Assembly (NCBI GenBank): GCA_022825945.1
Contig: JAJDVS010000082.1
Coordinates: forward strand, 10,470 to 74,469
DNA from: Pseudomonadales bacterium
Lineage (GTDB): Bacteria; Pseudomonadota; Gammaproteobacteria; Pseudomonadales; Pseudohongiellaceae
Direction of reading: 5' to 3'
DNA length: 64,000 nucleotides
In this document: positions 17,496 to 61,260 of the stretch, in pieces
Numbering within the stretch: the stretch's first letter is position 1
Layout of the letters: the number at the start of each line of letters is the position of its first letter
Notes under the pieces: generated by a model
The model's input: only the letters and a program-made list of their open reading frames with translations
Databases searched by the model: none
What the model was told of the DNA's origin: nothing
Program-made: the position numbers and the translations under genes

Positions 17496-17524
17496 GGAAG
17501 CTCTGATCAAGTCAGAGCTTCCCT
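17496..17524 (+). terminator. Perfect 12-bp stem hairpin directly after the receptor stop codon
   Basis: GGGAAGCTCTGA-tcaag-TCAGAGCTTCCC. There is no T-tract, so it may be a stability or REP-type hairpin rather than an intrinsic terminator. Confidence 0.4.
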
Positions 17525-17543
17525 GCGGCACATGGAAGTGCCG

Positions 17544-17650
17544 CCGAATTCGATGGCGTAAACCATTGAATTCGGGAGCAAAACAAAACCACGCTTTTGT
17601 TTTGCGATAATGAAAAACTCCACGGATGGAGTTTTTCAGAGAATACCTAG
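17544..17650. repeat. Three consecutive hairpins; the last 47 bp (17604-17650) recur exactly at 45370-45416 in inverse orientation
   Basis: Hairpins are CCGAATTC...GAATTCGG (17544-17575), GCAAAACAAAA-ccacgc-TTTTGTTTTGC (17578-17605) and AAAAACTCCA-cgga-TGGAGTTTTT (17612-17635). Confidence 0.7.
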
Positions 17651-29557: not shown

Positions 29558-29586
29558 GAGATTCCGCGACTTCGCGCGGAATGACG
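29558..29586. repeat. REP-like hairpin (short variant)
   Basis: GAGATTCCGCG-acttcg-CGCGGAATGAC, related to the ATTCTGCG/CGCAGAAT family found elsewhere in the window. Confidence 0.6.
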
Positions 29587-29590
29587 GGGG

Positions 29591-29718
29591 CCAGGAGCCT
29601 GCGCCACAGGAATTCGCGAAAGCGAAAATTCGCTATCGTCGCGCCCCTGGCCGGTCGATTGAGGCGAATATTGTTGGATATGCAACGAAATCGAGCGGCC
29701 GGGGGCGCAGGCTCCTAG
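29591..29718 (+). mobile_element. MITE-like non-autonomous element, short copy (128 bp)
   Basis: CCAGGAGCCTGCGCC...GGCGCAGGCTCCTAG imperfect terminal inverted repeats. Collinear with 45207-45373 with about 6 mismatches and one 39-bp internal deletion. No transposase ORF. Confidence 0.7.
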
Positions 29719-30416
29719 CGCAGACTTGACAGCAGCAACTCCCGTTGCCGCGCCTGCTGTTCGTGCAGGATTCCGCTGTCGCCCAGGGAATACAGGCCCA
29801 GATGGGATTCGGCGATGCGGATATTGCTCCGCAGGCTTTCGATCTTGCCCGGATTCAGGCCCGGGGCGGTCTCGGCAATCTCCAGCCTCAGCTTGAACAG
29901 TCTGCGGGCCTGCCGCAGATGTGGCACCGTGCGACCGTCGAGGCCATGGCGCAGGGCATCGGCATGCCAGTCGCTGATTCTGGCAAGCCCACTCTCCAGG
30001 CGGGCCGGGTCATCGGCGTACAGTCGCAGGTACAGGCTTTGCAACAGGGTGAAGTAATCGTCCACCTTCTCCCAGTTGGCCTGCACCGACTCGCTTTCGA
30101 TCAGGCTGTGGAGAATATCAAGCTGACCTTCGTGATACAGGCCCCCGGACATGCGGGCCAGCTCGAGTGCCCGGCGCAGAATGGGCAGTGCCGCCGCGTG
30201 TTCGTTCTGTTCCTGGAGAGACTGGGCCCGGCGCAACAGTGAATCCGCAAGCGGGGAATCCGCCGGGAATGAATCCCCTGACTGCCCGCTGGCAGGCGAA
30301 TGCAATACCAGCACAGTGACCGCGACCCAGCTCCACAAACCGGCCCCGGAAAAGATGGATATCCTGATGCTGCCGAGAAAAACCGGCATGATGCGAAACC
30401 CCGAAGCGAAAAACAC
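29715..30416 (-). CDS. Hypothetical secreted helical-repeat protein
   Basis: 233-aa ORF (GTG 30416; ATG 30389 gives MPVFLGSIRISIFSGAGLWSWVAVTVLVLHSPASG, a signal-like segment). The stop codon TAG is the terminal CTAG of the MITE-like element. Confidence 0.55.
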   Translation of the reverse strand: MFFASGFRIMPVFLGSIRISIFSGAGLWSWVAVTVLVLHSPASGQSGDSFPADSPLADSLLRRAQSLQEQNEHAAALPILRRALELARMSGGLYHEGQLDILHSLIESESVQANWEKVDDYFTLLQSLYLRLYADDPARLESGLARISDWHADALRHGLDGRTVPHLRQARRLFKLRLEIAETAPGLNPGKIESLRSNIRIAESHLGLYSLGDSGILHEQQARQRELLLSSLR

Positions 30417-30564
30417 TGCCTCGAATATCGCGCATCAGCGCGGCAATATCAAGAAAAATCGACCGGTTTTTTCAAATATATGACATTTTTGTGACAATCA
30501 AGATTGCAAGTTACTGTTTTATAAAGGTCATATTCTTGATGCACTATTTTGGTGCTTTATGCTC

Positions 30565-32586
30565 CTAACGATGGGTCCGATTGGCAAGCAGGGATTCCAC
30601 GAGCAGCAGGACCATGGCGAACAGCAGAATCCACCACCAGATGCGCTGCGGGCGTTCGAGTTCCTCCGCGAGTTCCGCCATCTGCACTTCCCGGGAACGA
30701 ACCACATCGGTATCGGGATTGATGATGGCGTCGGTGAGGGTCGCCACCGCCATTCTTTCCAGGTTTGACTCGGCGGCGTCGGCATTCACGGCGAAATTCT
30801 CATTGCCGCCGTCCACCTCGGCGCGGATGATGCCCGGCATGCTCGCTTCCACCAAAAAGTTCTCGCCGGCGAAGGTCATTGCATTGCCGTCGGGGCCTTG
30901 CACGCCGGCAACCAGTCCGGCGCCATTGATGTCCACGGAAAACCGATCCCCCACCTGATACGAACGCTGTTTCAGTTCCGGCTGCACCAGGTGGCGCAGG
31001 GTTTCATGGATGAAAGGCAGAAACAGGCCCTGAAGCGGCAGATTGTTCCATTCCAGATCCATGCTCGAAGCGAACAGCAGCACCCTGCCTTCGCCGAATT
31101 CCTGCTCCACCAGCGCCGGCATGGCGTTGTCGAACTGCATCAGCACCTCCGCGCCCGGATTGGCGGCAAGCCGCCAGTGATGCTGGAAACGCGCCGACCA
31201 GTCGGTATCCAGCGAGCGGAACACCGGATGCCGCCGATCGAAATCGGCGATGACCAGATAATCGCCGGCGCCGGTGAGTTCCGGGCTCGCCAGTTGCGCC
31301 GGGCTGATTTCGGCGAACTGTTCATTGAAGCGCTCCGGCTCCACCTGATCGCCGGGCGCAATGAGCAGGGCGCCGCCGTCGCGCACGTAGTCCGCCAGGG
31401 CATTCGTCTGGCCGACGCTGAGTTCGCCGACATTGAGCAGCACCGCCACGTCGTTCTGGCCCAGGGCCGCCGGGCTCAAATCCGCAGGCTCCAGCGCCTG
31501 CAGGCGAAAGGGCGATTCCCCGGAGCTGCTCACCGCCAGGGAGAACCAGTGTCCTTCGTCGTCGAACCACTGCCCGGAGGCCTCGCCATTGACCAGCAGA
31601 ATACGAATTCCCGGCAGCACATCCACGGTGAAATACCAGACGTTGTCGGCGGGAAAATTGTCGCCGGACAGTTCGATGCGGCCGATATGGCTGCCCTGTT
31701 GGGGAAAACTCGCGGCAAAGCTGACCACGCGCTCGGAGCGGTCATCGAGCGCCACCGACTGGCGGTCGATGAGCTGGTCATTGATCAGCAGGCTGACATC
31801 GGCGCGACTGGCGAACAGGGTCCCGGTGGAGCGGACCCGGGCAAGCACCTGCCGCCGCGGTTCGTCTTCGAGCAATTGCTCCGGCGAGCGCACGTCGGTA
31901 AGCGCCAGATTCACCGATTCGGGCCTGCCGGCGTCGATTCCGGTGAAGCGGACTCCCGGGGCGAGCTTCCAGTCTTCCTCCACATTGTCCATGCCCGCCT
32001 GCTGGTAGTCCGAAACCAGATACAGGGCGCGGTTTTCAAAGCGGGATGATTCGAGCAATTCATTGGCCAGACGCAGGGCCGGCATGAAGTCGGTGGCGCC
32101 ATGGCCCGGCTCAATCTCCCGCAGCAGCGCCCGGACGCTGTCGAGATCGGTATTGAATTCGCGCACGAGATCGACGCTTTCGTCAAAAGCGATCAGCGCC
32201 ACTTCGTCGCCGGCGTCAAGGGAATCGATCAGATCGAGGGCCTTGCCGCGGGCGGTTTCGAACACGTCCTCGTAGCGCATGCTCATGGACACATCGAGCA
32301 GCAGCACCGCCGACTCGGGGTCGGCGTCGAGCAACCGCGCCAGCGAAAGGTTGATCAGGGGGCGGGCGAAGGCGAATACCAGCAGGGCGATCAGGCCCGC
32401 GCGCAGGGCAAGCAGCAGCAATTGCCGCAAATGCTGGAACAGCACCAGCTTGCGCGGGGTTTTCTTGAGAAAGCGCACCGTGCCGAACCTCATCCTGGGC
32501 GGCTTTTCCCGGCGGATGAGGTGAATCGCCACCGGAACCAGCGCGGCAAGCAGGCCCAGCAGGAACAGCGGCGTGAGAAAGACCAT
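30565..32586 (-). CDS. BatA-type N-terminal double-transmembrane + VWA domain membrane protein
   Basis: MVFLTPLFLLGLLAALVPVAIHLIRREKPPRMRFGTVRFL (aerotolerance-regulator N-terminal type). VWA with MIDAS LLLDVSMSM. C-terminal TM IWWWILLFAMVLLLV. The start shares 1 nt with the DUF58 stop. Confidence 0.85.
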   Translation of the reverse strand: MVFLTPLFLLGLLAALVPVAIHLIRREKPPRMRFGTVRFLKKTPRKLVLFQHLRQLLLLALRAGLIALLVFAFARPLINLSLARLLDADPESAVLLLDVSMSMRYEDVFETARGKALDLIDSLDAGDEVALIAFDESVDLVREFNTDLDSVRALLREIEPGHGATDFMPALRLANELLESSRFENRALYLVSDYQQAGMDNVEEDWKLAPGVRFTGIDAGRPESVNLALTDVRSPEQLLEDEPRRQVLARVRSTGTLFASRADVSLLINDQLIDRQSVALDDRSERVVSFAASFPQQGSHIGRIELSGDNFPADNVWYFTVDVLPGIRILLVNGEASGQWFDDEGHWFSLAVSSSGESPFRLQALEPADLSPAALGQNDVAVLLNVGELSVGQTNALADYVRDGGALLIAPGDQVEPERFNEQFAEISPAQLASPELTGAGDYLVIADFDRRHPVFRSLDTDWSARFQHHWRLAANPGAEVLMQFDNAMPALVEQEFGEGRVLLFASSMDLEWNNLPLQGLFLPFIHETLRHLVQPELKQRSYQVGDRFSVDINGAGLVAGVQGPDGNAMTFAGENFLVEASMPGIIRAEVDGGNENFAVNADAAESNLERMAVATLTDAIINPDTDVVRSREVQMAELAEELERPQRIWWWILLFAMVLLLVESLLANRTHR

Positions 32587-33479
32587 CAGAAGCTCCGCGC
32601 CCGCCGCATCATGAACGCCGAAAGCGCCTGGTCAAGGGGCTGGGAAGTGTCCATCAGGCAATAGTCCACCCCGCTGCCCTGGCATTTCCTGCGGCAATAG
32701 TCGAGAAATTCCCGGACGTGTTGCAGGTAGGACTTGCGGATCGCCGCCGGCGAAGTAATGAAACTCTCGTCGTTCTCCATGTCGATGAACTCGGTGGCCT
32801 CGGTGAAGGGGAATTCGAGCTCGGCGTGGTCCATGATCTGGAATGCGATCACGTCGTGGCCCATGGCGCGCAGGTTCTGCAGGGTGCGAATCACGCGCTC
32901 CTCATCGTCGAGCATATCGGTAATGAGCACCACAAAGCTTTTCTTGTGGAGCGAAGTGGCCAGGTCGGTGAGCGGCTTGACCACATCGGTGCCGCCGCCC
33001 TGCTCCACTTTCGCCAGCGAACGCAGAATCCGCATCAGGTGCATTTGCCGGCATTTGGGTGGAATGTAATCGCGAATCTCTTCATCGAAAACGATCAGCC
33101 CCACGGCGTCGCGCTGGCGCATGATGAAGTAGGACAGCGCCGAAGCCAGGGTGACGCCATATTGCAGCTTGGTGAAATCGCCGGCGCCATAGGCCATGGA
33201 AGCGCTGCTGTCGAGCAGGATGACACAGCGCACATTGGTTTCGTCTTCGTATTGCCTGACGTGGAACTTGCCCGAGCGGGCGTAGAGCCGCCAGTCCACA
33301 TGGCGCATGTCGTCGCCGGGATAGTAGTGGCGGTAATCGTTGAATTCGACGCTGAAGCCCCGCTCCGGGCTCTTGTGCAGGCCCGACAGGAATCCCTCCA
33401 CCGCCACCCGGGCGCGCATCTCGAGATTGGAAAGCCCCGCGAGTACCGAGGGATCGAGAAAATTGAGGGATTCCGACAT
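32586..33479 (-). CDS. DUF58 family protein (VWA-like, MoxR partner)
   Basis: Family signature GFSVEFNDYRHYYPGDDMRHVDWRLYARSGKFHVRQYEDE, followed by ILLDSSASM. Confidence 0.88.
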   Translation of the reverse strand: MSESLNFLDPSVLAGLSNLEMRARVAVEGFLSGLHKSPERGFSVEFNDYRHYYPGDDMRHVDWRLYARSGKFHVRQYEDETNVRCVILLDSSASMAYGAGDFTKLQYGVTLASALSYFIMRQRDAVGLIVFDEEIRDYIPPKCRQMHLMRILRSLAKVEQGGGTDVVKPLTDLATSLHKKSFVVLITDMLDDEERVIRTLQNLRAMGHDVIAFQIMDHAELEFPFTEATEFIDMENDESFITSPAAIRKSYLQHVREFLDYCRRKCQGSGVDYCLMDTSQPLDQALSAFMMRRARSF

Positions 33480-33484
33480 CCGGG

Positions 33485-34552
33485 CTAGTCCTCGAGTTCC
33501 GCCGCCGGGGCGGGCACCGCCTCGAGCAGCCTGGTGATGACCTGGTCGGTGGTGACCCGTTCCGCCTCGGCGTGGAAGTTAAGCAGTATCCGGTGCCGCA
33601 GGATCGACGGCGCCAGGGCCCGCACGTCGCCATAGGAAACATTGAAGCGCCCGGAAAGCAGGGCCCGCACCTTGCCCGCGAGAATCAGGTTCTGGGAAGC
33701 GCGGATGCCGGCGCCCCAACTGATCCAGTCCTTGATGAACTGGGGCGAAGTGGGCGAATGGGGCCGGGAGGCATGCACCAGGCGCACCGCGTAGCGAATC
33801 ACGGCTTCCGCCGCGGGCACCTGCCGGGCGATACGCTGGAAATCGAGAATATCCTCGCCGCTGAGCGGGTGCGACAGGGGATTGTCATAGGTCTGGGTGG
33901 TGGTGCTCACCACGGTGACTTCGTCGGATTCCGACAGGTAATCGAGTTCAATCTTGAACATGAAGCGGTCGAGTTGGGCTTCCGGCAGGGGATAGGTGCC
34001 TTCGAGCTCGATGGGGTTCTGGGTCGCCAGCACGAAAAACGGCGCCGACATGGGATGGGTTCTTCCCGCGGCGGTCACCTGGCGCTCTTCCATGGCTTCC
34101 AGCAACGCCGACTGGGTTTTGGGCGGGGTCCGGTTGATTTCGTCGGCAAGCAGGATATTGGTGAAAATCGGCCCGGCGACAAACTTGAGGCTGCGCTGGC
34201 CGTCGACTTCCTCCACCACTTCCGAGCCCACCACGTCGGCGGGCATCAGGTCCGGCGTGAACTGGATGCGGCTGAACTTGACCTGGAGAATATCCGCCAC
34301 GGTCTTGATCAGCAGGGTCTTGGCAAGCCCCGGCACCCCGGTGACCAGGCAATGCCCGCCGGCGAACAGCGCGATGAGCAGTTCATCGACGATTTCATGC
34401 TGGCCGATGATGACCTTGCGGATTTCCTCCACGATCCGCTCCCTGCCTTCCTGCATGCGCCTGACGAGGCTCAGGTCATCCCGGTCCCGCACCACGGCCT
34501 CACCAATGCCCGCCGCCTCGTCCGCCGTTGCTGTCGCTTGTGCTTCTGACAT
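33485..34552 (-). CDS. MoxR family AAA+ ATPase
   Basis: Walker A GVPGLAKT, RIQFTPDLMPADVVG, Walker B LLADEINRTPPKTQSALLEAMEERQVT and the C-terminal lid region. Confidence 0.92.
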   Translation of the reverse strand: MSEAQATATADEAAGIGEAVVRDRDDLSLVRRMQEGRERIVEEIRKVIIGQHEIVDELLIALFAGGHCLVTGVPGLAKTLLIKTVADILQVKFSRIQFTPDLMPADVVGSEVVEEVDGQRSLKFVAGPIFTNILLADEINRTPPKTQSALLEAMEERQVTAAGRTHPMSAPFFVLATQNPIELEGTYPLPEAQLDRFMFKIELDYLSESDEVTVVSTTTQTYDNPLSHPLSGEDILDFQRIARQVPAAEAVIRYAVRLVHASRPHSPTSPQFIKDWISWGAGIRASQNLILAGKVRALLSGRFNVSYGDVRALAPSILRHRILLNFHAEAERVTTDQVITRLLEAVPAPAAELED

Positions 34553-34602
34553 GCCCTGTTTCCCGTTGCTTGTGGAAATCCGGAAATTTCCAGGTTGATG
34601 AC

Positions 34603-35433
34603 CTAGTGACTGAACGCGTAGATCAGGAAGTTTATCCCGATCTTGTACGCCTCGTTGGTGTAGCGGGTCGGATATTCCGCGTAAAAGGTGTGCTCCCAGC
34701 CGTCGCCGAGATCGGTATTGTAGTTCGCCAGCATCATGATGCGGCCATCGTCGTCGAGCACGGCATAGACTTCCGGCGGATAGCTCGGGTCATCGAGATT
34801 CATGTAGCCGCCGAAATCCCAGGTCACCATGCGTCCGGGCACCTGGGCCAGTTCGTCGATATCGAAAAAAATGTGGAAAATCTCGTGGCTGGTGTCGAGT
34901 TTGACGATTTCCCGGTCGGGGAAGATCTTGCCGATTTCCATGTACATGTCGTCGAGGTGGGGCTGGCCCCAGAAATCGTCCACCATGACGAATCCGCCCC
35001 GGAACATGAATTCCCGCAGGATTTCGATTTCCTCGGCGCTGAAATTCGGGCCGCTGTAGCTGGAGCCGATGGGCACGCGCTTCCAGTTCATGTAGAGAAA
35101 GATATGCTCGAAAATGCGCGGGTCGGTCAGTTGCATGAAGGTGTGGTTGCGGGGATTGGTGTCGATATTGGTGTAGCGCTGGACGCCGCGCAGGAAGTTC
35201 TCGTCGGAATCGGGATAGTCGGTGTCCCACCAGCCGCCCCGGCGGCGATAGGAAAAGCCGGTGCCGCCATGATTGGTGTATTGCCCCCGCACCCAGGTGA
35301 ATTCGGTGATGTCGTCGCCGTAGATGGCAAGATCCTCGTTGTCCTCAAACCGCGGTTGCTGGGCCTGGCTTGCGGCGCAAATCAGCAGCAGGCACAGACA
35401 TGCAGCGAGCAGCCCGGGGCGGCGGCGGGACAA
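34603..35433 (-). CDS. Secreted DUF4159 family protein
   Basis: TTG 35433 lies after GAGGA and gives LSRRRPGLLAACLCLLLICAASQAQ, a signal peptide. Family-typical FMFRGGFVMVDDFWG and YKIGINFLIYAFSH. The longer track ORF (to 35784) overlaps the upstream gene. Confidence 0.78.
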   Translation of the reverse strand: MSRRRPGLLAACLCLLLICAASQAQQPRFEDNEDLAIYGDDITEFTWVRGQYTNHGGTGFSYRRRGGWWDTDYPDSDENFLRGVQRYTNIDTNPRNHTFMQLTDPRIFEHIFLYMNWKRVPIGSSYSGPNFSAEEIEILREFMFRGGFVMVDDFWGQPHLDDMYMEIGKIFPDREIVKLDTSHEIFHIFFDIDELAQVPGRMVTWDFGGYMNLDDPSYPPEVYAVLDDDGRIMMLANYNTDLGDGWEHTFYAEYPTRYTNEAYKIGINFLIYAFSH

Positions 35434-35449
35434 TGCCGGGCGGGAATCC

Positions 35450-38167
35450 TCAATTGGCTTCACTGGCGGGATTCCCGTCAATGGACTGGAGCAGTATCTG
35501 TTGCGCCCGCAGATAGCCTGGCGCGGTCTCCAGCGCCCGCAGCACGGTTTCCCGGGCGGCAGCGGGACGCCCATCGCGCAGATAGGCTTCGGCCAGGCTG
35601 GTTCCGGCTTCCACCGGGTCCGAGATTTCCAGTTCCAGCAGGATTTCGTACTCGGTGACCGCGAGGGATGAGTCGCCGGTGAGGTCGGCAAGCCTGGCGC
35701 GCAGGGCGTGAACTTCGCTTTCATACGGGTCCACCTGCAGGGCCCGGTCGATATAGTAGTCGGCGCGTCCGGCATCGCCGGCATCGAGGGCCGCTTCCGC
35801 CAGAATCAGGGCGGACTGGTCGTCATGCTGCAGATTTTCCAGCAGGATTTCGAGCCAGCGCCGCTGTTCCTCGAGGTTGCCCTCGCTTTCGTAAATCTGG
35901 GACATCACCAGGGGCGGGCTCGGATAACCGGAATAGTTCGGCAGCAATTCGTGGGCCGCCAGTAGTGACTGTCTGGCCTCGGCGAAGTTCTCCTCCTTGA
36001 ACAGCACAATGCCGAGTTGCAGATGCGCCATGAAATCCCGGGGGTTCTCCTCAAGCCGGCTGCGCATGTACTGCTTGAGGGAAGCGTTGTTGTAGAGTTC
36101 CGACAGGATCGCGCTGGAGTTCTCGCGAATGCCGTGGCCGTGGCCTTCGACTTCGTCCGGTACGTCCTCATTGTGGACATGGACATTGATCTCGGCCACC
36201 CGCCGGGCGATCCAGTCGCGAAAGCCCGCGTCGAACTCGTTCGGGGACAGGTCGAAAACTTCCCGGAAGCGCTCGCTGTCCCGCTTGATGAGGCCGTACT
36301 GCACGACCAGTTCCCGCAGCTTTTCGAAACCGAAAGTCTGCTCGATGTAATCCACCACCAGATAGGACTGGAAGTAGGCGAAACCCAGGTCGGCATTGCT
36401 GCCGGCGCCGCTGAAGGCCGAGTTCAGCTCCGACACGGGCAGATACTGCTCCCGCTCGGCGGCGCGCACCAGGTCCAGGCCCTGGCGGCGGCCCCAGTAG
36501 GGCCGGCCCTGCTGTTCCTCCCATACCGAAATGCCTTCCGACAACCAGCGCGGAATCCGGTTGCGGGTCATTTGCAGGGTAATCACATGGGAAAATTCGT
36601 GCCAGACGATTTCCTGCCAGTTGGCGCTGAGGGTGTCCGGGGAGATGAGGGTAATCACCTTGCCGAAGCAGATGCCCACCAGCGGTCCGATATCGGGCAG
36701 GCCCACGGAACGCACGGCGAAATCCTGGGTATTCTCGAAAACCTCGATCAGCACCGGGTACTCCGGCTCGAACTGCCATTTTTCCACCATTTCGTCCCAG
36801 GCCTCTTCCAGCAGCGGCTCCAGATACGGCCAGAGGATTTTGGCGTCCCGGGGCGACATGTGAACGAGGAAATGCTCACTTTCCAGGGTGGCGTATTCTT
36901 CCAGGGTGTCGAATACCGTGAGCAGATTGGAGGACAGCACATTGAACGGGTCGTTATCAAAACCGGTTTCGAGATTGGCGCGGCCCTCGGCTTCCTCGCC
37001 GAGACGGATCAGGTTGCTGCCGAGCAAGGTATAGCCCCGCCAGTATTCCGGGTCGGCGGCGATGGCGGCGCGGGCATATTCCACGGCTTCGGTGAAGCGG
37101 TAGTTGCGGCCGAAATGATCCGCCACATCGGCCAGGAAAACCGGGTTGCCGGGGCTGAAAGCCTCCACCTGGGCGGCGTGCAGTTCATAGTCCGCCATGC
37201 GCTCTTCCATGGCCGCCTGGGCCGCCATGGCGCTGAGCACGCCCAGGGCTTCGGGATTCAGGTCGAGCGCCCGGGAAAAATGCCCCGCGGCCTCCTCCAC
37301 CCGCTCATTGCGCTGCAACTGCCGGCCCCAGACTTCCATGGCCGGCACCGCGTTGGGATTGATCGCCAGGGCTCGTTGCAGGCTGCGCTCGTCGCCGGTG
37401 ATCCGCGCCAGTCCCACCAGGGCGGGAACATGGCGATCGTTGATTTCCAGCGCGTCCTCATAGGAGGTTCGCGCTTCGCCTTCATTGTATTTTTCCAGGA
37501 ACAGGTCGCCCCAGAGCGTTTGCGCCTCAAGGTTTTGCGGGTCGGCCCGGGTGGCTTCCCGGAACAGGCTGTTGGCGTCGTGAAAGCGGCCGAGCAGCCA
37601 GCTTGCCAGGGCCGTCATGGTCACCTCGGCGGAACTGAAAATCAGGCCGTTGTTGTAACGGCCCACGACTTCCTCAAGCAGGGGATCGCTTTCCTCCCCG
37701 CGACCGGTGAACTGCAGCAGCGATGCCTGCTGCGTCAGGCTGCGCACCGGCGCGCCTTCGAGCCCGAGACCGTCGATCACCGCCTGGAGAATGGCAATCG
37801 CCTCGGCGGAATTACCGGTCATGCGCTTGACTTCGGCCAACTGGGTACTGACCAGGGGGTAATCCGCATAGTCGCCGCCGATCAGTTCCTCGCAGACCGC
37901 CATGGCCTCCTGATAGTTGCCCATGCCCGCCAGGGCGCGGCTTGCGCCGATGACGCCGGCGGTGCGATCCAGTCCGTCAGCCTGCCGGAATACTTCGGCG
38001 GCGGCGGCGTAGGCGCCCGACAGCAGCAATTGCCCGCCGCGCTGCAGAGGGGCCGCGGCAAGCGCCGGCTCGTCTTCGGGCTGGGCGATCGCCGCGGCGG
38101 GCAGCAGCAGGATCAGGCCGAGCAGCAGGCGGTTCAGAATATCCATTGCGGAGGACTTGTGGTTCAT
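35450..38167 (-). CDS. Secreted TPR-repeat protein with embedded peptidase-MA (HExxH gluzincin) domain
   Basis: Signal peptide MNHKSSAMDILNRLLLGLILLLPAAAIAQ. TPR-like repeats flank both sides. WHEFSHVITL (HEFSH at 36587-36601) is followed by RWLSEGISVWEE. Confidence 0.8.
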   Translation of the reverse strand: MNHKSSAMDILNRLLLGLILLLPAAAIAQPEDEPALAAAPLQRGGQLLLSGAYAAAAEVFRQADGLDRTAGVIGASRALAGMGNYQEAMAVCEELIGGDYADYPLVSTQLAEVKRMTGNSAEAIAILQAVIDGLGLEGAPVRSLTQQASLLQFTGRGEESDPLLEEVVGRYNNGLIFSSAEVTMTALASWLLGRFHDANSLFREATRADPQNLEAQTLWGDLFLEKYNEGEARTSYEDALEINDRHVPALVGLARITGDERSLQRALAINPNAVPAMEVWGRQLQRNERVEEAAGHFSRALDLNPEALGVLSAMAAQAAMEERMADYELHAAQVEAFSPGNPVFLADVADHFGRNYRFTEAVEYARAAIAADPEYWRGYTLLGSNLIRLGEEAEGRANLETGFDNDPFNVLSSNLLTVFDTLEEYATLESEHFLVHMSPRDAKILWPYLEPLLEEAWDEMVEKWQFEPEYPVLIEVFENTQDFAVRSVGLPDIGPLVGICFGKVITLISPDTLSANWQEIVWHEFSHVITLQMTRNRIPRWLSEGISVWEEQQGRPYWGRRQGLDLVRAAEREQYLPVSELNSAFSGAGSNADLGFAYFQSYLVVDYIEQTFGFEKLRELVVQYGLIKRDSERFREVFDLSPNEFDAGFRDWIARRVAEINVHVHNEDVPDEVEGHGHGIRENSSAILSELYNNASLKQYMRSRLEENPRDFMAHLQLGIVLFKEENFAEARQSLLAAHELLPNYSGYPSPPLVMSQIYESEGNLEEQRRWLEILLENLQHDDQSALILAEAALDAGDAGRADYYIDRALQVDPYESEVHALRARLADLTGDSSLAVTEYEILLELEISDPVEAGTSLAEAYLRDGRPAAARETVLRALETAPGYLRAQQILLQSIDGNPASEAN

Positions 38168-39195
38168 GGCGCAAGCTTATTGAATCTCGCGGTGGCGCGG
38201 GCCAGCTCCACCAGCAATTCCTCGAGCTGGCGCCAGTAGTCGGGTTCGAGGAATTCGGCCTTGCGGCCCCGCAGAATGAAAACCGAGCGTTCCAGTTGTT
38301 GCATGCGGGATTTCAGCGCCAGTGCTTCGCCGCCGAGATTGGCGGTTTCCGCCGCGGCGGAGTCGATATAGGCGATTTCCGCCAGGCGGCCGTCCGGGTC
38401 ATCGAGGCCCGGGCCGAGGCTGAACATGGCGTCGCCGTTATCGTCGAGCCCGGCGTGTTCCGAGGCGAGCCGGCCCTGGTCGGCGTACCATTGCTCGACA
38501 TTGGCCCGGGCGTAATTGAAGGCTTCCAGCAGGGACACCCGGTTGTTCTTGTCCAGGTCCCCGGCGCGGCCGTCGAGGGCTTCGATGAAGTAGCGCGAGA
38601 AAACCGGATCGTATTTTTCCGAAGCCGAGCGCGTGGCGGAAATCACCACCCTGCCCTCTCCCGAAAGAAAGGTGGAAAAACCGTAGCTCGCACTGGTGGT
38701 ATTGACGATGACCATGTCCTGCCGCGCGAAGGGTTCCAGCAATTCGCGGAACTCCGGGCCGGTGTAGTCCGGGCCGATGATATTGAACTTGGCTTCCCCG
38801 CCCTCGCCGGAGCCGTGACCGATGAGATAGACGGTAAGCTGGTCGCCGTCGCCCACCTGATCGCGCAATTCGCTGAATGCCGCGGCTATGCCGGCCCGGT
38901 CGCTGGTTCCGTCGAGCCGGTTGCCGGCATTGGGACCGGCCGCGTCCAGGTCGTGGAGCAGGGTGATGGAATCGGTGGAATAACCGTAGTCCCGGATGAG
39001 GATGTCGTGGAGCGAATAGGCCCATTGCCGGAATTGGGAGATACTGTCGGCGCCCACCGAGGGGCCGACGATAATCACCGCGTACTTGGCGGAATCCGGC
39101 GCTTCGAGGAAATAGTCGACTTCCATCGGAAGTTGCGCCCGGGCCGCGGAAGTCGCGAAAACCAGCAGTAGCAGGAGCGTTGGCAGCCGGTTCAT
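38164..39195 (-). CDS. Secreted caspase/legumain (peptidase C13)-fold protein with Ser at the catalytic Cys position
   Basis: ATG 39195 (ATGA overlap with the upstream stop) gives MNRLPTLLLLLVFATSAARAQ. YAVIIVGP..., TVYLIGHGSGEGG (His-Gly dyad) and MVIVNTTSASYGF align by eye to legumain MVFYIEACESGS. C-terminal coiled coil. Confidence 0.65.
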   Translation of the reverse strand: MNRLPTLLLLLVFATSAARAQLPMEVDYFLEAPDSAKYAVIIVGPSVGADSISQFRQWAYSLHDILIRDYGYSTDSITLLHDLDAAGPNAGNRLDGTSDRAGIAAAFSELRDQVGDGDQLTVYLIGHGSGEGGEAKFNIIGPDYTGPEFRELLEPFARQDMVIVNTTSASYGFSTFLSGEGRVVISATRSASEKYDPVFSRYFIEALDGRAGDLDKNNRVSLLEAFNYARANVEQWYADQGRLASEHAGLDDNGDAMFSLGPGLDDPDGRLAEIAYIDSAAAETANLGGEALALKSRMQQLERSVFILRGRKAEFLEPDYWRQLEELLVELARATARFNKLAP

Positions 39196-41492
39196 GACAA
39201 GCCCCGCAGCCGGCGCGTCATCCAGTCGATGCATAGCAGGCCCACGAGCAGGGCGAGTAGCCAGGGTTCGTCCCACAGGTCGATCTGCGTTTCCCGGGAA
39301 TAGGCGTTGGGGGTGAATTCGATGGCTTCGGGCAGTCCGCCCACCTCGTCGAGATCGAAATAGCCGCCGCCGGCGGCCTCCGCCATGCGGCCAAGGAGTC
39401 CCCGGTCCATGCCGGCATTGTTGAATTCGCGCAGGGAAGGCGTCACCACGATGGCGGCCTGCTTTTCGGCGCCTTCCTCGCCGACAGCGCTGGTCACGTC
39501 CACGAGCAGGTCGAAAACCCCTTCCTGGTCGGCAATGAAGGAAGAGCGGTAAATGCCGTCTTCCTCGATATTCCATTCCATGGGGGTGTCGGTGATTTCG
39601 TCCAGCGGGTTGGTGGTCTGGATCCACAGGCTGGCGTCATTGTCGGGCTCGTACTGTTCGTCGAGCACCCGGGCGGTGACCTGCACCTCGTCGCCGATAT
39701 TGTAGAACTCGCGGTCGAACTCCAGGGTCACCCGGTCCGGCGCCGAAACCGCGAGCCAGCGCAGCATCTGCCGCCACAGGGTTTCGTGTGAGGTATCTTC
39801 CGAGTCCATCATCATCTGCCAGCGCCAGGTGCTCGCGGTGGTGAGCGACAGGACCCGACCGCTGCCATAGCGCTGGGTAACGATCACCGGCAGGGCCTGG
39901 TTCCGGTATTGCAGCGCCGGATGTTCCAGCAGCACTTCGGCCCCGGGCTTGATGCGGCCGGTGACGTACACTCCCTGCAACTGTGGCAATTGCGACCAGG
40001 CGAATCGGTTTTCGGCGTCTTCCCCGGCGAGCCGGAGCAGCGGTGAAAACTCGCCGTTGCGGGTCAGGCGCGGAACGAACAGTTCGCCGCTGGGGTGGTC
40101 GCCCCGACGTATGCCGCCGCGCAGGGGATTGGGCAGGAAATTCTCCTCCACCAGGGTCACCGGCAGTATGTCCACCAGCGGAGTGCCGATGAATGCCTCA
40201 TCCACCATGCCGCTTTTGAGCAGGCCGCCGCCACGCTCGGCGACAAAGCCCTCGATCATCCGCAACTGGTCGTCGTTGAAGAACTCCTTTTCGATATCGC
40301 CGAGGATGATCGCCTCGTATTCGTACAGCGTCTCCCGGCTGCCGGGAAAGCCTTCGGCAAGCTCGGTGGGCGATTCGATGCCCTGGCGATAGAACTTGCC
40401 GGGGCCGGTTTGCAGATAGGTCGCCAGCCGCAGGGATTCGTCATCCTCCACCGCCCGGCGGATGAACTTGTATTCGTTGCGCGGATGACCTTCGAGATAG
40501 AGGATGTCCAGGGGCGGTTTGTCGGTATTGTCCACCAGAAAGCGGTAGCTGTTGTTGCGGGTGATGATCTCGCCGGGCTGAACGCCCACCCGCAATTCGT
40601 AAACGATGCGCTCGGCGCGTTCCGGGGTGACCTCAAGACTGAAGCGCCGGGATACGCCCGCGGCGCCGAGGCTGACCACCTCGCTGCTTACCGCGGCGTC
40701 GCCGTCGAACACCGCGAGTTCCACTTCCTGGCCGGCGAATCCCTGGTGGCGCAGGGCCGCGGTCACGGTGAAGACCGAACCTTCGAGCACGGTGCGGGCG
40801 GCGCTGACGTCCACAATGCCGATATCGAGTGGAATGTCTTCCTGACCCACGCCCACGGTGAAAACGGGAATCCGGCGGTTGCCGAATTGCCGGGCGGCGA
40901 TGATCGGGTCGCTATTGCTGTTGTCGGCGCCATCGCTGACGAGCACCACGCCGCCGAGGGGAAGCCCGTCAAGCTGACCGGCCACGGCTTCCAGGGCCTG
41001 GCCGATGGCGGAACCGGCGCCGGATTCGCCGAGCGCGCCGTCGCTTTCGCCCGGCGCGACCCGGCGGATGGTCTGGTCGAAGGCGAAGCTGCGAAGCTGG
41101 AAGGATTCGGCGAGTTCATCCATCACCGGGCCGGCGAGAAAGGCGTCCGCCGCAGCCGCTGCCCGGCTGCGACCGTCCATGTCGGCGATGGTCATGCTTT
41201 GGGAATTGTCGAGCAGCACGGCGAGATAGGTATCCTGGGGCGAGACCTGGCGCGTGTTCACCACCGGCCGCAGCAGGCAGAACAGGATCAGGACCAGCGC
41301 CAGGGAGCGCAGCCCGATGAACCAGGCTTTCCAGACCGGCGACAGCGGCCGCGTGGTGCGGTAGTAGCTCAGCCAGACCGCGGCGACAACGAGCAGGGAA
41401 ATGAGCCCGAACAGCCACGGGCTGACGCCATGGGCAAAGCTCAGATTGCCTTGTTGCAGCGCGGACAGCAGCGTGGGCTGGGTGACTTGCAT
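39192..41492 (-). CDS. Membrane-anchored VWA domain protein with amidotransferase-like C-terminal domain
   Basis: Two N-terminal TMs. VWA with MIDAS VLLDNSQSM and VVLVSDGADN. The ThuA/GATase1-like region is suggested by ILYLEGHPRNEYKFIRRAV and YEAIILGDIEKEFF...GFVAERGGGLL. C-terminal TM WLLALLVGLLCIDWM. Confidence 0.78.
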   Translation of the reverse strand: MQVTQPTLLSALQQGNLSFAHGVSPWLFGLISLLVVAAVWLSYYRTTRPLSPVWKAWFIGLRSLALVLILFCLLRPVVNTRQVSPQDTYLAVLLDNSQSMTIADMDGRSRAAAAADAFLAGPVMDELAESFQLRSFAFDQTIRRVAPGESDGALGESGAGSAIGQALEAVAGQLDGLPLGGVVLVSDGADNSNSDPIIAARQFGNRRIPVFTVGVGQEDIPLDIGIVDVSAARTVLEGSVFTVTAALRHQGFAGQEVELAVFDGDAAVSSEVVSLGAAGVSRRFSLEVTPERAERIVYELRVGVQPGEIITRNNSYRFLVDNTDKPPLDILYLEGHPRNEYKFIRRAVEDDESLRLATYLQTGPGKFYRQGIESPTELAEGFPGSRETLYEYEAIILGDIEKEFFNDDQLRMIEGFVAERGGGLLKSGMVDEAFIGTPLVDILPVTLVEENFLPNPLRGGIRRGDHPSGELFVPRLTRNGEFSPLLRLAGEDAENRFAWSQLPQLQGVYVTGRIKPGAEVLLEHPALQYRNQALPVIVTQRYGSGRVLSLTTASTWRWQMMMDSEDTSHETLWRQMLRWLAVSAPDRVTLEFDREFYNIGDEVQVTARVLDEQYEPDNDASLWIQTTNPLDEITDTPMEWNIEEDGIYRSSFIADQEGVFDLLVDVTSAVGEEGAEKQAAIVVTPSLREFNNAGMDRGLLGRMAEAAGGGYFDLDEVGGLPEAIEFTPNAYSRETQIDLWDEPWLLALLVGLLCIDWMTRRLRGLS

Positions 41493-41494
41493 GC

Positions 41495-44400
41495 TCAGCG
41501 CGCCGAATCGCCCGAACCCTGCTGTTCCGACAGCACGCGGTAGTACTCCTGTACCAGGCCGCGGTATTCGTCGGGGATGTCCTCCTCGATGGTGGCGTAC
41601 AGGCGGTTGTTGATTTCCTCGAGTTCGGCCTGGGCGCGCAGGGCGCCTTCGAGTTCGATGACCGGCTCGAGCAGGGCGCGGAACAACTCGGGCTGGTTGA
41701 GAAAGTCCTCGATGTCCTGGCGGGTGATTTGCCGGGTCACCGAACGCGCATCGCCCCAGGGCAGATTGCCGCCATCGGTGCGGATTTCGCCGCCGGGGCC
41801 ATGGCGGTCGGTGCCGGACTGGCGCAAATCGCCGTTCCGGTTGCCGCCCCGGGCCTGCCCGCCAGCGCCTTGCTGGGCCTGCTGCCGCATCTGCTGGCTG
41901 ATTTGCCGGGCGAGCTGGCGGGATTGCCGCAACTGCTCGCGCAATTCACCCACGCCGGGCATGCCGGGGCCGGGCCGGTTGCCGTTTTCATTGAGCGCCT
42001 GAACCTGGCTTTCGAGTTCCTGCAACCGCTCGCGCAACTGCCGGGCGTCCGCCGCCGCCTGCTGCAGGGGGTTGCCTGAAGCCTGGGCCGGGTCGAGCGC
42101 CGCGAGGCTTTGGGCCAGGTCCTCGATCTGGTCTTCCACGGTCTGCTCGATATCCGCGGCGAGATTGACCATGCCATTGCGCAGGATGCGGTTGCTGGTC
42201 TGCATTTCTTCCTGGATGGGGCGCAACTCCCGGGTCGCCTGCTGGGCCTGGGAAAGCAGCCGCTGATCCTCGTTGCCGCCCCGGGCGATGACCGCCCGCA
42301 GCATGTCCTCGATTTCCTCGATTTCCTGTTGCCGGCGCTGCTGGACCTCGATCAGCTCGTCGAGATCAGCGTCATTGCGCACCGATTGCCGGGTCTGGCC
42401 GAGACCCATTTCCCGGCTGGCCTCTTCCATGGCTTCCCGCAGCTCGCGCTGTTGCTCAAGCAATTGCTGGCCGCGCTGACCGAGATTGCGCGCCAGTTGA
42501 TTCACCGAACGATCCGCCTGCTCGCCGAGCTGCCGCTGCTGGCGGCGCAGGTTTTCCAAAGCCTTCTGGCTTCTGGCGGCGGCGATGGAGGGCGATTCCG
42601 CCGCGGCTGCGTCCCGCATCTGCCGGGCCGCCTGCCGCAGCGCCTCGGTCTGCCGGGCGCCGCCGCTTTCGCCCTGGGAACTCTGGCCCCGGGAGGCGCT
42701 GGCGCTTTGCTGGCCCCGGGACATCTGCCGGGCGAGTTGCTGGACTTCCTGGCTCAGTTGCTCCTGCTGGCGCATCAGCCTTTCGAGTTCCCTGCGCTTT
42801 TGCTCTTCGGTCAATTGTTCCGCGCGACGGGCGAGATTGCGCTGGGCCCGGGTCAGGCCCTCCTGGCGCCGGGCGAGTTCCTCAAGCTGGTTGGCTTCTT
42901 CCTGCTGCCGGGCGCTCTGGCCCCGGCTGTTGGGATTTTCATAGCGGTTTTCCAACTGGCCAAGCTCCATTTCGAACAGTTCGCGCAGGTCTTCGCGTTC
43001 CTGCCGGGCTGCTGCGCCGCCACCGCCGCCTCCCTGCCGCATGCTGATTTCGGTGCGGTTGATATTGGCTTCGGCCTTGAGGATGTATTGCAGCGCAGCC
43101 TGTTCCGGTTGCAGGGCGCTGGTGACCTGGAGCAGGTCCAGCTCCGCCGCCGCGAGATTCATCTGATCTATGGCCAGGGCGAGGTTTTCCACCGCCTGGT
43201 CGTAGGAGTCGTCGGAAAAATTGAGCCTTTCCGACAGCCGGTCAATCGACATGCGCGCCTGGCGGGTGGCTTCGAGCTGGGATTCGGCGATGATTTCGGC
43301 GTCGGCGGCGAACTCTTCGGGCGCCGCCCGGGACTCGCGGTTCTTGAGCTTCCAGGTTGCCGCGATGATGTCTTTCTGGATATTGACCAGGGCGCTGCTG
43401 TCTCCGCCCTGACCGCCGCCACCTCCGCCGCCGCCCTGGTTGCGGCGGAATTCCTGGTCGGTGGGAATGACCTGGAGAAAGTAGATATCGGAAATCACCT
43501 CGCTGGGACCGTCGAGGCCGTTATTGTCCGCGAGGGTGAGATAGTAGCTGACGAAATCGCCGGGCTCCACGGCCAGGTCCTCGAGATAGATCAACTGCTC
43601 GCCGGATACGCTGCGCACTTGCTCTTCGGGGAGGAAGTCCACCTCCGCCTCGTCCTGCCCCACCACACTGTAATGGAGATTGAAACGGGTCAGGCCGTAG
43701 TCGTCGCTGGCGTCTACTTCAAGGATGACTTCCTCCAGGGGCATGACATCCTGATCCCTGCCCGGGCGGCGCAGGGCGAGCTCCGGAGGTTGGTCCACGA
43801 TGGCCCTGATGTAGTAGTCGAGCGGATCGCTGCTGGCAAGGCCGGAATGATCCACCGCCCGCACCCGGTACACGCCGTCCTGGCTGAGCGTGAAGGAGGC
43901 GGCGCCGGTATTGCCGTCGATGTTGAGCGGCAGGTCGGGCATGTCGGCGCCTTCCGCGGCGGGGTCGAATTCGAGCCGGGCCTCGGCCACGGCCTTGTTG
44001 AAGCCCACGGTGATTTCCACCGCGCTGCCCACCGGGGCGATCAGGTCGCCGCCGTCTTCTTCGAGCAGGTCTTCCATACCGGTGTATTCGGGATAATCGA
44101 AGGCCACATCGATTTGTTCCACCCGGGGCAGGTCAAATACGCTGATGCGGTACTGGCGGGAGTTTTGGGTATCGCCCTGATCGAATGTCACATAATAGGT
44201 GGTGTCTTCCATCAGGCTCGGGATGTAGTAACTGAACGCGGCGCCGTCGCTGCCGCCGCCGTCCCGCCTCATGGCCACATCGCGCCAGTTGACGTTGTCG
44301 TCCTGCAGGCGCAGGGTCACAGCCTCCGGGGCGGCGCCGCTGACCCGGGCCGCAACGGTAAGGCCGTCGCCGCGCTGCAATTCCATATCGCCCGGTTCGA

Positions 44401-45022
44401 TGAGAATCTCGATCACCGGCGGCGGCTCGCCCTGCATCACGATTTCAGCGGCTTCGAACGGCCAAAGCAGGCGACTGAAGGAATCCCTGAGGGTTCCCGA
44501 TGTCAGCAGGACCACCGAGACCGCGAGCACGGCGCCCGCCGACAGCCCGAAACCGAGCCAGGAGCGACCCACCGGGGTAATCGATTCCATTTCCCGCTGC
44601 TGGCGCAGCATTTGCCGCTCGGCGTCCTGCCACAGGCGGGCAATGAACTGCCGGGACACGCCCCGGCGGCCAAAACGCAGTTCATCCTCGCTGAATTCCA
44701 GGGAAGTCAACAGGCGCTGTTCCAGATCGGGGATATGGTCTTCCACATAATGCGCCAGACACTGGTGGGTCGCATGGCGGCGGCGCAGCACGCCGAACAG
44801 CCGCCAGCCCAGTGCGCCGATGGTTCCCAGCAGCGCCGCGAGCATTGCCAGGCTCGCCAGGGGCGCTGGCTGCAACTCGCTGAACAACAGGGTAAAGCTG
44901 AATATCAGCAGGGCGCTGACGGCGCAAAACAGGCTGAGTTGGCGCAATGCAAAAAAGGTGCTGCGGCGGCGGCGGAGGTCTTCGAGAGTGGCGTGCAAGC
45001 TGTCGAACGTGGGATGCGTCAT
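41495..45022 (-). CDS. 1175-aa membrane protein with Ig-like beta region, poly-Gly tracts and ~550-aa Q/R/E-rich coiled coil (DUF4175-like)
   Basis: ATG 45022 lies after GGAG. TMs FALRQLSLFCAVSALLIFSFTLLF, LASLAMLAALLGTIGALGW and WLGFGLSAGAVLAVSVVLL. Also HYVEDHIPDLEQRLLTSLEF, the GGGGGGGGQGG tract, and C-terminal EDIPDEYRGLVQEYYRVLSEQ. Confidence 0.78.
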   Translation of the reverse strand: MTHPTFDSLHATLEDLRRRRSTFFALRQLSLFCAVSALLIFSFTLLFSELQPAPLASLAMLAALLGTIGALGWRLFGVLRRRHATHQCLAHYVEDHIPDLEQRLLTSLEFSEDELRFGRRGVSRQFIARLWQDAERQMLRQQREMESITPVGRSWLGFGLSAGAVLAVSVVLLTSGTLRDSFSRLLWPFEAAEIVMQGEPPPVIEILIEPGDMELQRGDGLTVAARVSGAAPEAVTLRLQDDNVNWRDVAMRRDGGGSDGAAFSYYIPSLMEDTTYYVTFDQGDTQNSRQYRISVFDLPRVEQIDVAFDYPEYTGMEDLLEEDGGDLIAPVGSAVEITVGFNKAVAEARLEFDPAAEGADMPDLPLNIDGNTGAASFTLSQDGVYRVRAVDHSGLASSDPLDYYIRAIVDQPPELALRRPGRDQDVMPLEEVILEVDASDDYGLTRFNLHYSVVGQDEAEVDFLPEEQVRSVSGEQLIYLEDLAVEPGDFVSYYLTLADNNGLDGPSEVISDIYFLQVIPTDQEFRRNQGGGGGGGGQGGDSSALVNIQKDIIAATWKLKNRESRAAPEEFAADAEIIAESQLEATRQARMSIDRLSERLNFSDDSYDQAVENLALAIDQMNLAAAELDLLQVTSALQPEQAALQYILKAEANINRTEISMRQGGGGGGAAARQEREDLRELFEMELGQLENRYENPNSRGQSARQQEEANQLEELARRQEGLTRAQRNLARRAEQLTEEQKRRELERLMRQQEQLSQEVQQLARQMSRGQQSASASRGQSSQGESGGARQTEALRQAARQMRDAAAAESPSIAAARSQKALENLRRQQRQLGEQADRSVNQLARNLGQRGQQLLEQQRELREAMEEASREMGLGQTRQSVRNDADLDELIEVQQRRQQEIEEIEDMLRAVIARGGNEDQRLLSQAQQATRELRPIQEEMQTSNRILRNGMVNLAADIEQTVEDQIEDLAQSLAALDPAQASGNPLQQAAADARQLRERLQELESQVQALNENGNRPGPGMPGVGELREQLRQSRQLARQISQQMRQQAQQGAGGQARGGNRNGDLRQSGTDRHGPGGEIRTDGGNLPWGDARSVTRQITRQDIEDFLNQPELFRALLEPVIELEGALRAQAELEEINNRLYATIEEDIPDEYRGLVQEYYRVLSEQQGSGDSAR

Positions 45023-45097
45023 GTTGACTCCGCCATTTGCGTTTGCCCCGGCGCCGGCATCCGGGCGGGGATTTCCGGCGGCGTTCGGCCCAAGTCA

Positions 45098-45127
45098 AAT
45101 ATCCCACCAACGCGCCAGTGATTGCAA
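45098..45127 (-). promoter_or_regulatory. Candidate sigma70 promoter of the eight-gene operon
   Basis: On the minus strand, TTGCAA (45127-45122), an 18-bp spacer, then GATATT (45103-45098). It lies ~75 nt upstream of the ATG at 45022. Confidence 0.3.
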
Positions 45128-45206
45128 GCGCGGTTGGGGGCCGGCTCGCCCCGGCCGCGGTATCGGTCAGCATGGCCACGGGCGCGGATTTGGCTCATGG
45201 CGCGGC

Positions 45207-45373
45207 CCAGGAGCCTGCGCCGTAGGAATTCGCGAAAGCGAAAATTCGCTATCGCCGCGCCCCTGGCTGATCGATTGAGGCGAATATTGGTGGATATGCA
45301 ACGAAATCGAGCGGCCGGGGGCGTGGATGAGAGCGCATTTGCAGCCGTGAATTCCTACGGCGCAGGCTCCTAG
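45207..45373 (+). mobile_element. MITE-like non-autonomous element, full copy (167 bp)
   Basis: Terminal inverted repeats of ~25 bp: CCAGGAGCCTGCGCCGTAGGAATTC ... GAATTCCTACGGCGCAGGCTCCTAG. Internal hairpin GAATTCGCGAAAGCGAAAATTC. No coding capacity for a transposase. Confidence 0.75.
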
Positions 45374-45416
45374 GTATTCTCTGAAAAACTCCATCCGTGG
45401 AGTTTTTCATTATCGC
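45370..45416 (-). repeat. 47-bp hairpin unit, exact inverted copy of 17604-17650
   Basis: CTAGGTATTCTCTGAAAAACTCCATCCGTGGAGTTTTTCATTATCGC is the exact reverse complement of 17604-17650. It shares the CTAG with the MITE end. Confidence 0.8.
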
Positions 45417-45419
45417 TTT

Positions 45420-45503
45420 CGGCGTCTTGTCGACGTGACAGCAACTGTCCTCCCGGAGGGTGCGGAAGCTCTGGATGCCGATGGGTGGCTGGCGGCGCTG
45501 CAT
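45420..45503 (-). pseudogene. Remnant (first ~28 codons) of an AAA-ATPase-like / PD-(D/E)XK family gene
   Basis: MQRRQPPIGIQSFRTLREDSCCHVDKTP matches the conserved N-terminus of that family (PIGIQ-F--LRE----YVDKT). The reading frame then runs into repeat DNA. About 88% DNA identity to 58171-58254 by eye. Confidence 0.6.
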
Positions 45504-45566
45504 GACGGAGTCGGGTTTGGCAGATTCGGGTTCCAGGAATCATGTATGCTGAACCCGCACAGGCGT

Positions 45567-61247: not shown

Positions 61248-61260
61248 GAGCCTGCGCCGT
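61244..61260 (+). mobile_element. Solo terminal fragment of the MITE-like element
   Basis: CTAGGAGCCTGCGCCGT equals the element terminus. Its TAG serves as the kdsD stop codon. Confidence 0.45.

Follow-up and report, generated by a model that had tools for sequence, protein, structure and literature searches.

Imperfect palindromes of the enterobacterial repetitive intergenic consensus (ERIC)/intergenic repeat unit (IRU) and Correia types are 100-170 nt long, intergenic and present in high copy number; they can form long RNA hairpins and are often co-transcribed with the flanking genes. Correia elements duplicate TA, and functional effects, such as promoters or RNase III processing, are documented for repeats of the ERIC and Correia types, for most of which we know of no cognate transposase. 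In Pseudomonas syringae pv. phaseolicola, the MITE (miniature inverted-repeat transposable element) MITEPsy1 is small, non-coding, multi-copy and bounded by terminal inverted repeats (TIRs), and its mobilisation has been observed directly; it is 100 nt long, duplicates CTAG/YTAA and is derived by its authors from the insertion sequence (IS) ISPsy2 (PMC3189936). Here, two element families, MITE-1 and MITE-2, are described from a 64,000-nt stretch of a Pseudohongiellaceae contig (JAJDVS010000082.1, positions 10,470 to 74,469; the window), in which two same-orientation copies of MITE-1, A and B, bracket an eight-gene MoxR/VWA operon. What, if anything, does this bracketing say about the operon? 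We consider it very probable that an abundant, CTAG-inserting MITE landed independently, and at different times, on both sides of an old, vertically inherited operon, and that the bracketing is coincidental because the element combines high copy number with a target preference. Mobility, target site, copy number, differing insertion ages and conservation of the operon are all observed in the data presented below.

The closest analogue of MITE-1 is MITEPsy1 for target choice and the ERIC/Correia-type repeats for architecture. Only the target is shared with MITEPsy1: the termini of MITE-1 match those of MITEPsy1 at only 4-7 of 18 positions, and for this reason membership in the MITEPsy1/ISPsy2-derived family is rejected. 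Moreover, MITEPsy1 is 100 nt long and has a proposed parent in ISPsy2, whereas MITE-1 is 163 nt long, forms a hairpin over its whole length and has no parent found. It is MITE-2 whose termini resemble the MITEPsy1 TIRs, with 14/18 and 15/18 matches. The ERIC and Correia repeats are alike in architecture but unrelated in sequence and host, and the target of MITE-1 is CTAG. Classification as a repetitive extragenic palindromic (REP) sequence or bacterial interspersed mosaic element (BIME) is likewise rejected, given a 163-nt unit with a target duplication as opposed to array units of 20-40 nt. No Rfam family matched anywhere in the window at gathering thresholds, a distant blastn search of PLSDB plasmids with copy B returned no match, and a literature search found no description of MITE-1, nor of MITEs in Pseudohongiella. 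MITE-1 is a CTAG-targeting, whole-length-palindromic bacterial MITE, of a known general kind.

The pair itself is readily recovered. Copy B (45207..45373, plus strand) is full length, with 163 nt between its termini and 167 nt when the flanking CC..AG is included. Copy A (29591..29718, plus strand) is a deletion derivative with 124 nt between its termini, minus 39 nt of the right arm. A repeat search of the window returned the two as a direct pair (family D3, 29581-29707 and 45197-45323) with 93% identity, 15,616 nt apart, and alignment over the first 117 nt gave 6 mismatches (AC>GT, T>C, C>T, G>A, T>G), with longest uninterrupted identical runs of 31 and 33 nt. Both copies start CCAGGAGCCTGCGCC and end GGCGCAGGCTCCTAG. 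The description in an earlier note on this DNA, of two collinear, same-orientation copies with 6 mismatches in 117 nt and the same ends, is thus borne out. Within the window the 13-nt terminus is present 5 times (0.2 expected) and a 25-nt core 3 times (0 expected). Orientation is well defined despite the palindromy, since copies match at ~95% one way and ~72% the other. The same note had observed a 39-nt segment in the 45-kb copy only. The difference, TGGATGAGAGCGCATTTGCAGCCGTGAATTCCTACGGCG, is real, and it represents a deletion from copy A rather than an insertion into copy B: exactly 163 nt separate the termini in 72 of the 113 copies examined (the window and the loci listed), copy A is the only one among them with a length of 124 nt, and therefore the 39 nt were lost from A. 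The deletion sits between two GGCG microhomologies.

MITE-1 is non-coding, and open reading frames (ORFs) across it are only spurious frames without a family match. Copy B folds into a near-perfect 167-nt hairpin (-112.4 kcal/mol, z = -12.7) with a terminal stem of 26 consecutive pairs, and conservation of these inverted-repeat termini extends over 70 copies. The fold of copy A is weaker (-71 kcal/mol, z -7.0) because part of its right arm is missing. The element is flanked as CT/AGGAGCC...GGCTCCT/AG, with CCAG and CTGG variants.

Direct evidence of mobility comes from a site within the operon. At 34603..34606, in the spacer between the MoxR and DUF4159 genes and overlapping the TAG stop of the latter, the window carries an empty CTAG target (GATGAC-CTAG-TGACTG) that is filled in relatives. 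In the locus L087 of OZ244788.1, which is 93-98% identical to window positions 28483-36365 and is referred to here as the 97% relative, 163 bp have been cleanly gained at this position, and CTAG stands at either end of the insert. The same CTAG is filled by MITE-2 in the 93% relative L114; therefore, two different elements hit one target independently. Comparison of the empty and filled sites demonstrates a target-site duplication of 2, 3 or 4 nt, the length being ambiguous because CTAG is palindromic; the use of CTAG, as in MITEPsy1, is borne out by the flanks of the other copies and is consistent with a 4-nt duplication without proving one. A further MITE-1 copy lies in another relative at the equivalent of window position ~54215, where the window is empty. 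Copies are dispersed and polymorphic: site B, 34603 and ~54215 are each occupied in some of the genomes compared and not in others. The label "MITE-like", which the earlier note had given to the pair, is strengthened by the empty/filled site pair, the CTAG duplication and the high copy number.

That copy number is considerable. A search with the 25-nt core, limited to one genome per species, returned at least 101 loci, nearly all of them in metagenome-assembled genomes (MAGs) of Pseudohongiella/Pseudomonadales. The complete MAG chromosome OZ244788.1 (3.51 Mb) carries at least 39 exact-core copies, a lower bound given that an exact 25-mer match was required. In four sponge and marine metagenome runs, the summed depth of the element bins was 20-110x that of neighbouring genes. 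Of the gaps between neighbouring copies in OZ244788.1, 11/38 (29%) measure no more than 20 kb, and therefore close pairs of MITE-1 are commonplace. Very high copy number was one of two findings that the earlier note had named as speaking against its own reading of the bracketing, and the other, an operon syntenic in relatives that lack the element, is found as well (see below).

The second contribution to the coincidence is the scarcity of targets. CTAG occurs 11 times in the window against 218 expected from base composition and 33 expected from a Markov model, so that it is about 20-fold depleted, and 6 of the 11 are associated with elements, either as element ends or as the polymorphic site. 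TTAA is depleted likewise (9 observed, 77 expected). CCAG and CTGG, for their part, occur more often than expected (465 and 496 observed, 348 and 389 expected). Many element ends carry CCAG or CTGG instead of CTAG. Depletion of CTAG and TTAA together with an excess of CCAG and CTGG resembles the effect ascribed to very-short-patch repair. Some of the surviving CTAGs coincide with stop codons: the right-hand CTAG of copy A (29715-29718) holds the TAG stop of a minus-strand gene for a 233-aa TPR protein, and 34603 and 61244 are the other clear cases in the window. Of the TAG-bearing ends in general, 26/74 come after a frame that stays open over at least 100 codons, the background being 27%; this crude test gives no convincing enrichment.

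Elements are often found head-to-tail, or abutting the other family on one shared CTAG (L014, L073, L075 (1544-1873) and L076), and MITE-1/MITE-2 junctions occur in L024, L025, L046, L059, L074, L075, L084 and L096. Such arrays are to be expected if the rare target is re-created at both ends of the element with every insertion.

The two copies in the window differ in their histories. At site A of the 97% relative, REP units precede a remnant of the right arm that ends in CTAG and includes the 39 nt lost from copy A; it follows that the insertion is older than the divergence of the two lineages and has been decaying independently in each. Copy B lies 185 nt upstream of the first start codon of the operon, within a decayed AAA-ATPase_like/PDDEXK_9 gene. 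In OZ244788.1 this gene is intact (534 aa) and holds no element; in the 93% relative L104 at least 162 aa of it can be read before the contig stops, and the ~400 nt covered hold no element; and L114 (93%) has MITE-2 in the gene remnant, at another point and in the other orientation, and no MITE-1. Among the relatives compared, MITE-1 is present at site B only in the window, and the 97% relative instead holds a copy inside the operon, at the equivalent of 34603. Because occupancy differs from site to site and the arm variants of the two copies differ as well (ACA in A, GTA in B), they are independent insertions of different ages.

The remains of the interrupted gene lie on either side of copy B. 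To the left is a 3' (PDDEXK_9-side) remnant (45142..45211, minus strand) with a ~80% match to L106:430-499 and L111rc:13728-13797; the left end of L106, where its contig stops, consists of a simple (GCTCG)n repeat. To the right is a 5' remnant of the first ~28 codons (45421..45519, minus strand; PF09820, weak), which is repeated at 58172-58270 (family D4, 86%). The MITE-1 pair had been said to enclose exactly the operon and one further gene, a statement that needs correction, as the 3' remnant is also inside.

The bracketed genes, comprising the 233-aa TPR gene and the eight-gene operon (29715..45022, minus strand), occur in the same order in L111, L112/L115 and L114. The operon encodes, in order, DUF4175-like, GATase1-like, an unnamed protein (343-369 aa in relatives), TPR/Peptidase_MA, DUF4159, MoxR AAA+, DUF58 and BatA/VWA. 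Homologues of its first gene are found on long contigs throughout the lineage. The most informative comparison is with ERZ21861969:ctg21601c (3.46 Mb; L112/L115), a ~80% relative whose first-gene protein is 80% identical. The eight genes keep their order there. One flank carries a 226-aa gene whose product is 47% identical to that of the TPR gene, then a CNNM gene in convergent orientation (88%, protein) and an RND pump; the opposite flank carries NUDIX-GST-SLT-SecDF. Some 120 kb of sequence from three distant genomes, this relative among them, yielded neither MITE-1 nor MITE-2. Since the ~80% relative has the order CNNM, 226-aa gene and operon without the element, the left junction in the window is ancestral. 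The operon stands at the same CNNM-side junction in both the 97% and the ~80% relatives; L114 (93%) has the same order, on a locus that stops short of the junction. Its proteins also diverge in step with their neighbours, DUF4175-like being 80% and MFS 82% identical when compared with one and the same genome. The GC fraction of the block (0.632) is close to that of its flanks (0.621 and 0.633), and its tetranucleotide distance ranks 27th among 49 sliding windows.

These observations settle two proposals of the earlier note. It had suggested that the repeats may mark the borders of an acquired block; base composition and tetranucleotide usage match the flanks and the operon is syntenic in relatives, so the suggestion fails. 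It had also proposed looking for adjacency of the CNNM and MFS genes where the operon is absent. The operon is present in every relative fetched (97%, 93% and ~80%), and that comparison cannot succeed because no relative fetched lacks it. In three distant genomes the MFS gene stands beside GntR and CN_hydrolase, ~1 Mb away from the operon in ERZ21861969:ctg21601c. Nothing about where the MoxR/VWA operon came from, or whether it moves, can be read from the bracketing, and the operon is best treated as a stable core operon of the lineage.

Taken together, the following course of events would account for the locus. MITE-1 would be a non-autonomous element, abundant in a sponge-associated Pseudohongiella-like lineage, that integrates at CTAG under the action of a transposase presumably supplied in trans; the parent IS would be bounded by CTAG and by termini of the GAGCCTGCGCC or GGAAGCTCTG type. 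Of the CTAGs that survive, several hold TAG stops of genes or are the ends of earlier elements, and because the rare targets are so placed, insertions in the window would come to lie in spacers and decayed genes and to bound whole transcription units. Copy A would have come first, before the split from the 97% relative, into the spacer that separates the convergent CNNM and TPR genes, and would then have lost 39 nt by microhomology deletion. Copy B would have entered later, in the lineage of the window only, in the decaying AAA-ATPase_like/PDDEXK_9 gene and beside a MITE-2 fragment. The operon between them would be an old vertical resident whose CNNM-side junction is older than the element.

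Several observations weigh against this account. The left flanks of copies A and B are CCAG, not CTAG. The copy census comes from OZ244788.1, a 93-98% identical relative, and not from the window's own genome. The outer termini of the pair are intact, such that mobilisation of the whole segment is physically possible. Finally, a search of 1.03 Mb of related DNA for terminus pairs 0.26-5 kb apart gave no autonomous IS with MITE-1 or MITE-2 termini; the candidate pairs were separate MITEs, or solo termini, on either side of ordinary genes such as a NagZ-like one.

A separate question is whether the hairpin does anything for its host. Across 70 distinct full-length copies with a mean column identity of 95%, 97.6% of cells are paired, as compared with ~40% when the structures are slid by one to three columns. 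Compensatory double changes occur at 14 pairs against 7.3 ± 1.3 in shuffled alignments, and none of 500 shuffles reaches 14. The plus strand folds better than the minus strand in 70/70 copies (-115.8 as opposed to -97.4 kcal/mol) because of fixed G-U pairs. This pattern suggests that the structure of the MITE-1 hairpin may be under constraint, and the covariation could in part derive from subfamily ancestry or from repair within the hairpin. Metatranscriptome contigs contain MITE-1 from many loci, a signal that is not locus-specific and may include DNA. It is conceivable, although doubtful, that MITE-1 would be a structured RNA or single-stranded DNA element under selection, such as a transcript-end stabiliser or a target of RNases or defence systems, that is perhaps exchanged between bacteria and whose spread would be tied to the depletion of CTAG.

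Diverged copies, 79-86% identical to the consensus and with the hairpin kept by paired changes, are found in MAGs of other classes and phyla. These include L004, L027 and L100 (OZ243916.1, Binatia), L006, L032 and L052 (OY761822.1) and L099 (JAQAJJ, Ca. Azophilus), the labels being Binatia, other Gammaproteobacteria and 'Ca. Azophilus'. Taking the MAG labels as assigned, this distribution suggests that the MITE-1 family or its transposase may have spread horizontally between different bacteria. The organism of the window itself was obtained from sponge metagenomes.

One alternative hypothesis is that the direct copies recombine, so that the 15.6-kb segment is deleted, circularised or tandemly duplicated in part of the population. 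The shared orientation and the 117 nt at 95% identity would allow for this, and identical runs of 31 and 33 nt lie near the lower limit commonly given for RecA-dependent exchange. Among the genomes and contigs examined, however, none is missing the operon at the locus, and the operon is conserved throughout the lineage, which suggests that its loss would be selected against. The sole A/B joint in metagenome contigs (29625>45337) has a shorter side of 35 nt and is explained by any full-length copy elsewhere. This check was made on assembled contigs, where rare variants do not show. MITEs are stated to be hotspots for homologous recombination (PMC10969869). The earlier idea that the repeats can mediate deletion or duplication therefore stands as a mechanistic possibility, yet no evidence of either event was found in the genomes or contigs examined, and we regard recombination between the copies as quite unlikely.

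A further hypothesis is that the two copies, A just beyond the stop of the TPR gene and B upstream of the operon's start, are kept for a local role of their RNA hairpins in transcript termination, insulation or stabilisation, and that their positions at the ends of the operon are selected. Maintenance of the hairpin with compensatory changes, the better fold of the plus strand and the presence of the element in metatranscriptome contigs would all fit a local function of this sort. The positions, however, are not conserved: there are relatives without copy B, with a degraded copy A or with a copy inside the operon. Moreover, copy A is without much of its right arm, and scans for sigma-70-like promoter and intrinsic-terminator motifs found none inside either copy. 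The covariation and the metatranscriptome signal are themselves open to the other explanations given above, and selected positions at the operon ends are highly improbable.

That the pair forms a composite MITE-bounded transposon, or the borders of an acquired island carrying the MoxR/VWA operon, has next to no chance of being correct, even though a stretch of DNA between homologous MITEs is reportedly open to mobilisation (PMC10969869) and the window shares with such segments the layout of two homologous MITEs with intact outer termini around a multi-gene segment: unlike those segments, the operon is ancestral and at its ancestral site in relatives, with the CNNM-TPR-operon junction present in a ~80% relative that lacks the element; the copies differ in age, sequence, arm variant and subfamily; site B of the closest relative is without MITE-1, its own copy being inside the operon; an empty-site allele or a second location is not seen among the relatives compared; and the divergence of the operon proteins, like the composition of the block, is that of the neighbours. 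A horizontally acquired island is rejected on the same composition and on the presence of the operon in every relative examined.

The elements themselves have some practical consequences. MITE-1 and MITE-2 break short-read assemblies of these sponge symbionts, and unitigs end at 29.2, 29.7, 45.1 and 45.2 kb of the window. The two families mark the few CTAGs of the genome and are therefore useful as strain-level markers. With clean natural pairs of empty and filled sites, and with a CTAG-targeting system in a CTAG-starved genome, they offer a modest but tidy case for the study of bacterial MITEs.

Other pieces of both families are scattered through the window. The full copy of MITE-2 (17492..17650, plus strand; repeat family I1) is 159 nt long, bounded by CTAG, and has the termini GGGAAGCTCTGA and GGTATTCTCTGA. 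A 47-nt terminal fragment of MITE-2 (45370..45416, minus strand) is inverted relative to 17604-17650, to which it is 100% complementary, and has one CTAG in common with copy B, at the right end of the latter; a junction of this kind recurs in L024, L025, L096, L046, L059 and L075. The 47-bp unit and gene remnant that had been noticed outside copy B are both present, and the unit is now identified as this fragment. A MITE-1 left-end fragment at 20542..20588 (plus strand; family D5) consists of the first 47 nt only. A solo MITE-1 terminus, CTAGGAGCCTGCGCC, is located at 61244..61258 (plus strand; family I9), and its TAG is the stop of a KpsF-like gene (SIS, CBS domains). At the equivalent position the 97% relative has the terminus and then a piece of MITE-2.

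The REP reported outside copy A was confirmed as a REP-like hairpin at 29558..29590 (plus strand; repeat families D1/D2), of the same family as arrays at 47.7, 50.5 and 61.9 kb. In the 97% relative there are three units at this place, which replace the left part of the MITE. The family, GATTCTGCGAC...GCGCAGAATGAC, has units of ~33 nt and forms tandem arrays, with members at 29558-29590, 47659-47724, 50449-50514, 61835-61997 and 63878-63922.

Beyond its first gene, the operon is bordered by different genes in different relatives. OZ244788.1 continues with Na_Ca_ex-KpsF-KdsC-Lpt, the window and L114 continue with MFS, and JAJEGU has DUF2188, HTH-M78 and DUF3368 upstream of MFS. In the window, two direct remnants of the decayed gene (45142-45519 and 58025-58292; 99-nt core, 86%) flank a 12.65-kb segment that reaches from the MFS gene to the MazG/tRNA-methyltransferase genes, with GntR just to the right of the second remnant. 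The gene order is remnant-GntR-MFS in JAJDYJ and CN_hydrolase-GntR-MFS in the distant genomes, and the whole MFS-to-GntR segment is absent from this place in OZ244788.1. It is the pair of AAA-ATPase_like remnants, not the MITE pair, that marks a real rearrangement hot spot, and the variable right side of the operon is due to the AAA-ATPase_like gene region, not to MITE-1.

The gene content of two relatives also differs locally from that of the window. In L102:1-3300 (JAJEGU010000010.1; MFS protein 97% identical), genes for DUF2188, a 174-aa protein, HTH/Peptidase_M78 (ImmA-like) and DUF3368 (PIN-like) lie upstream of MFS; homology to the window stops at 45562, and the genes form a small variable cassette at the same hot spot. 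In L106:8959-13008 (JAJDYJ010000002.1), SIR2_2, a DUF87/FtsK-like ATPase and an Eco57I-type methyltransferase are encoded downstream of an HMGL-like gene. This cluster, in place of which the window has BacA/TsaD, is probably a defence island.

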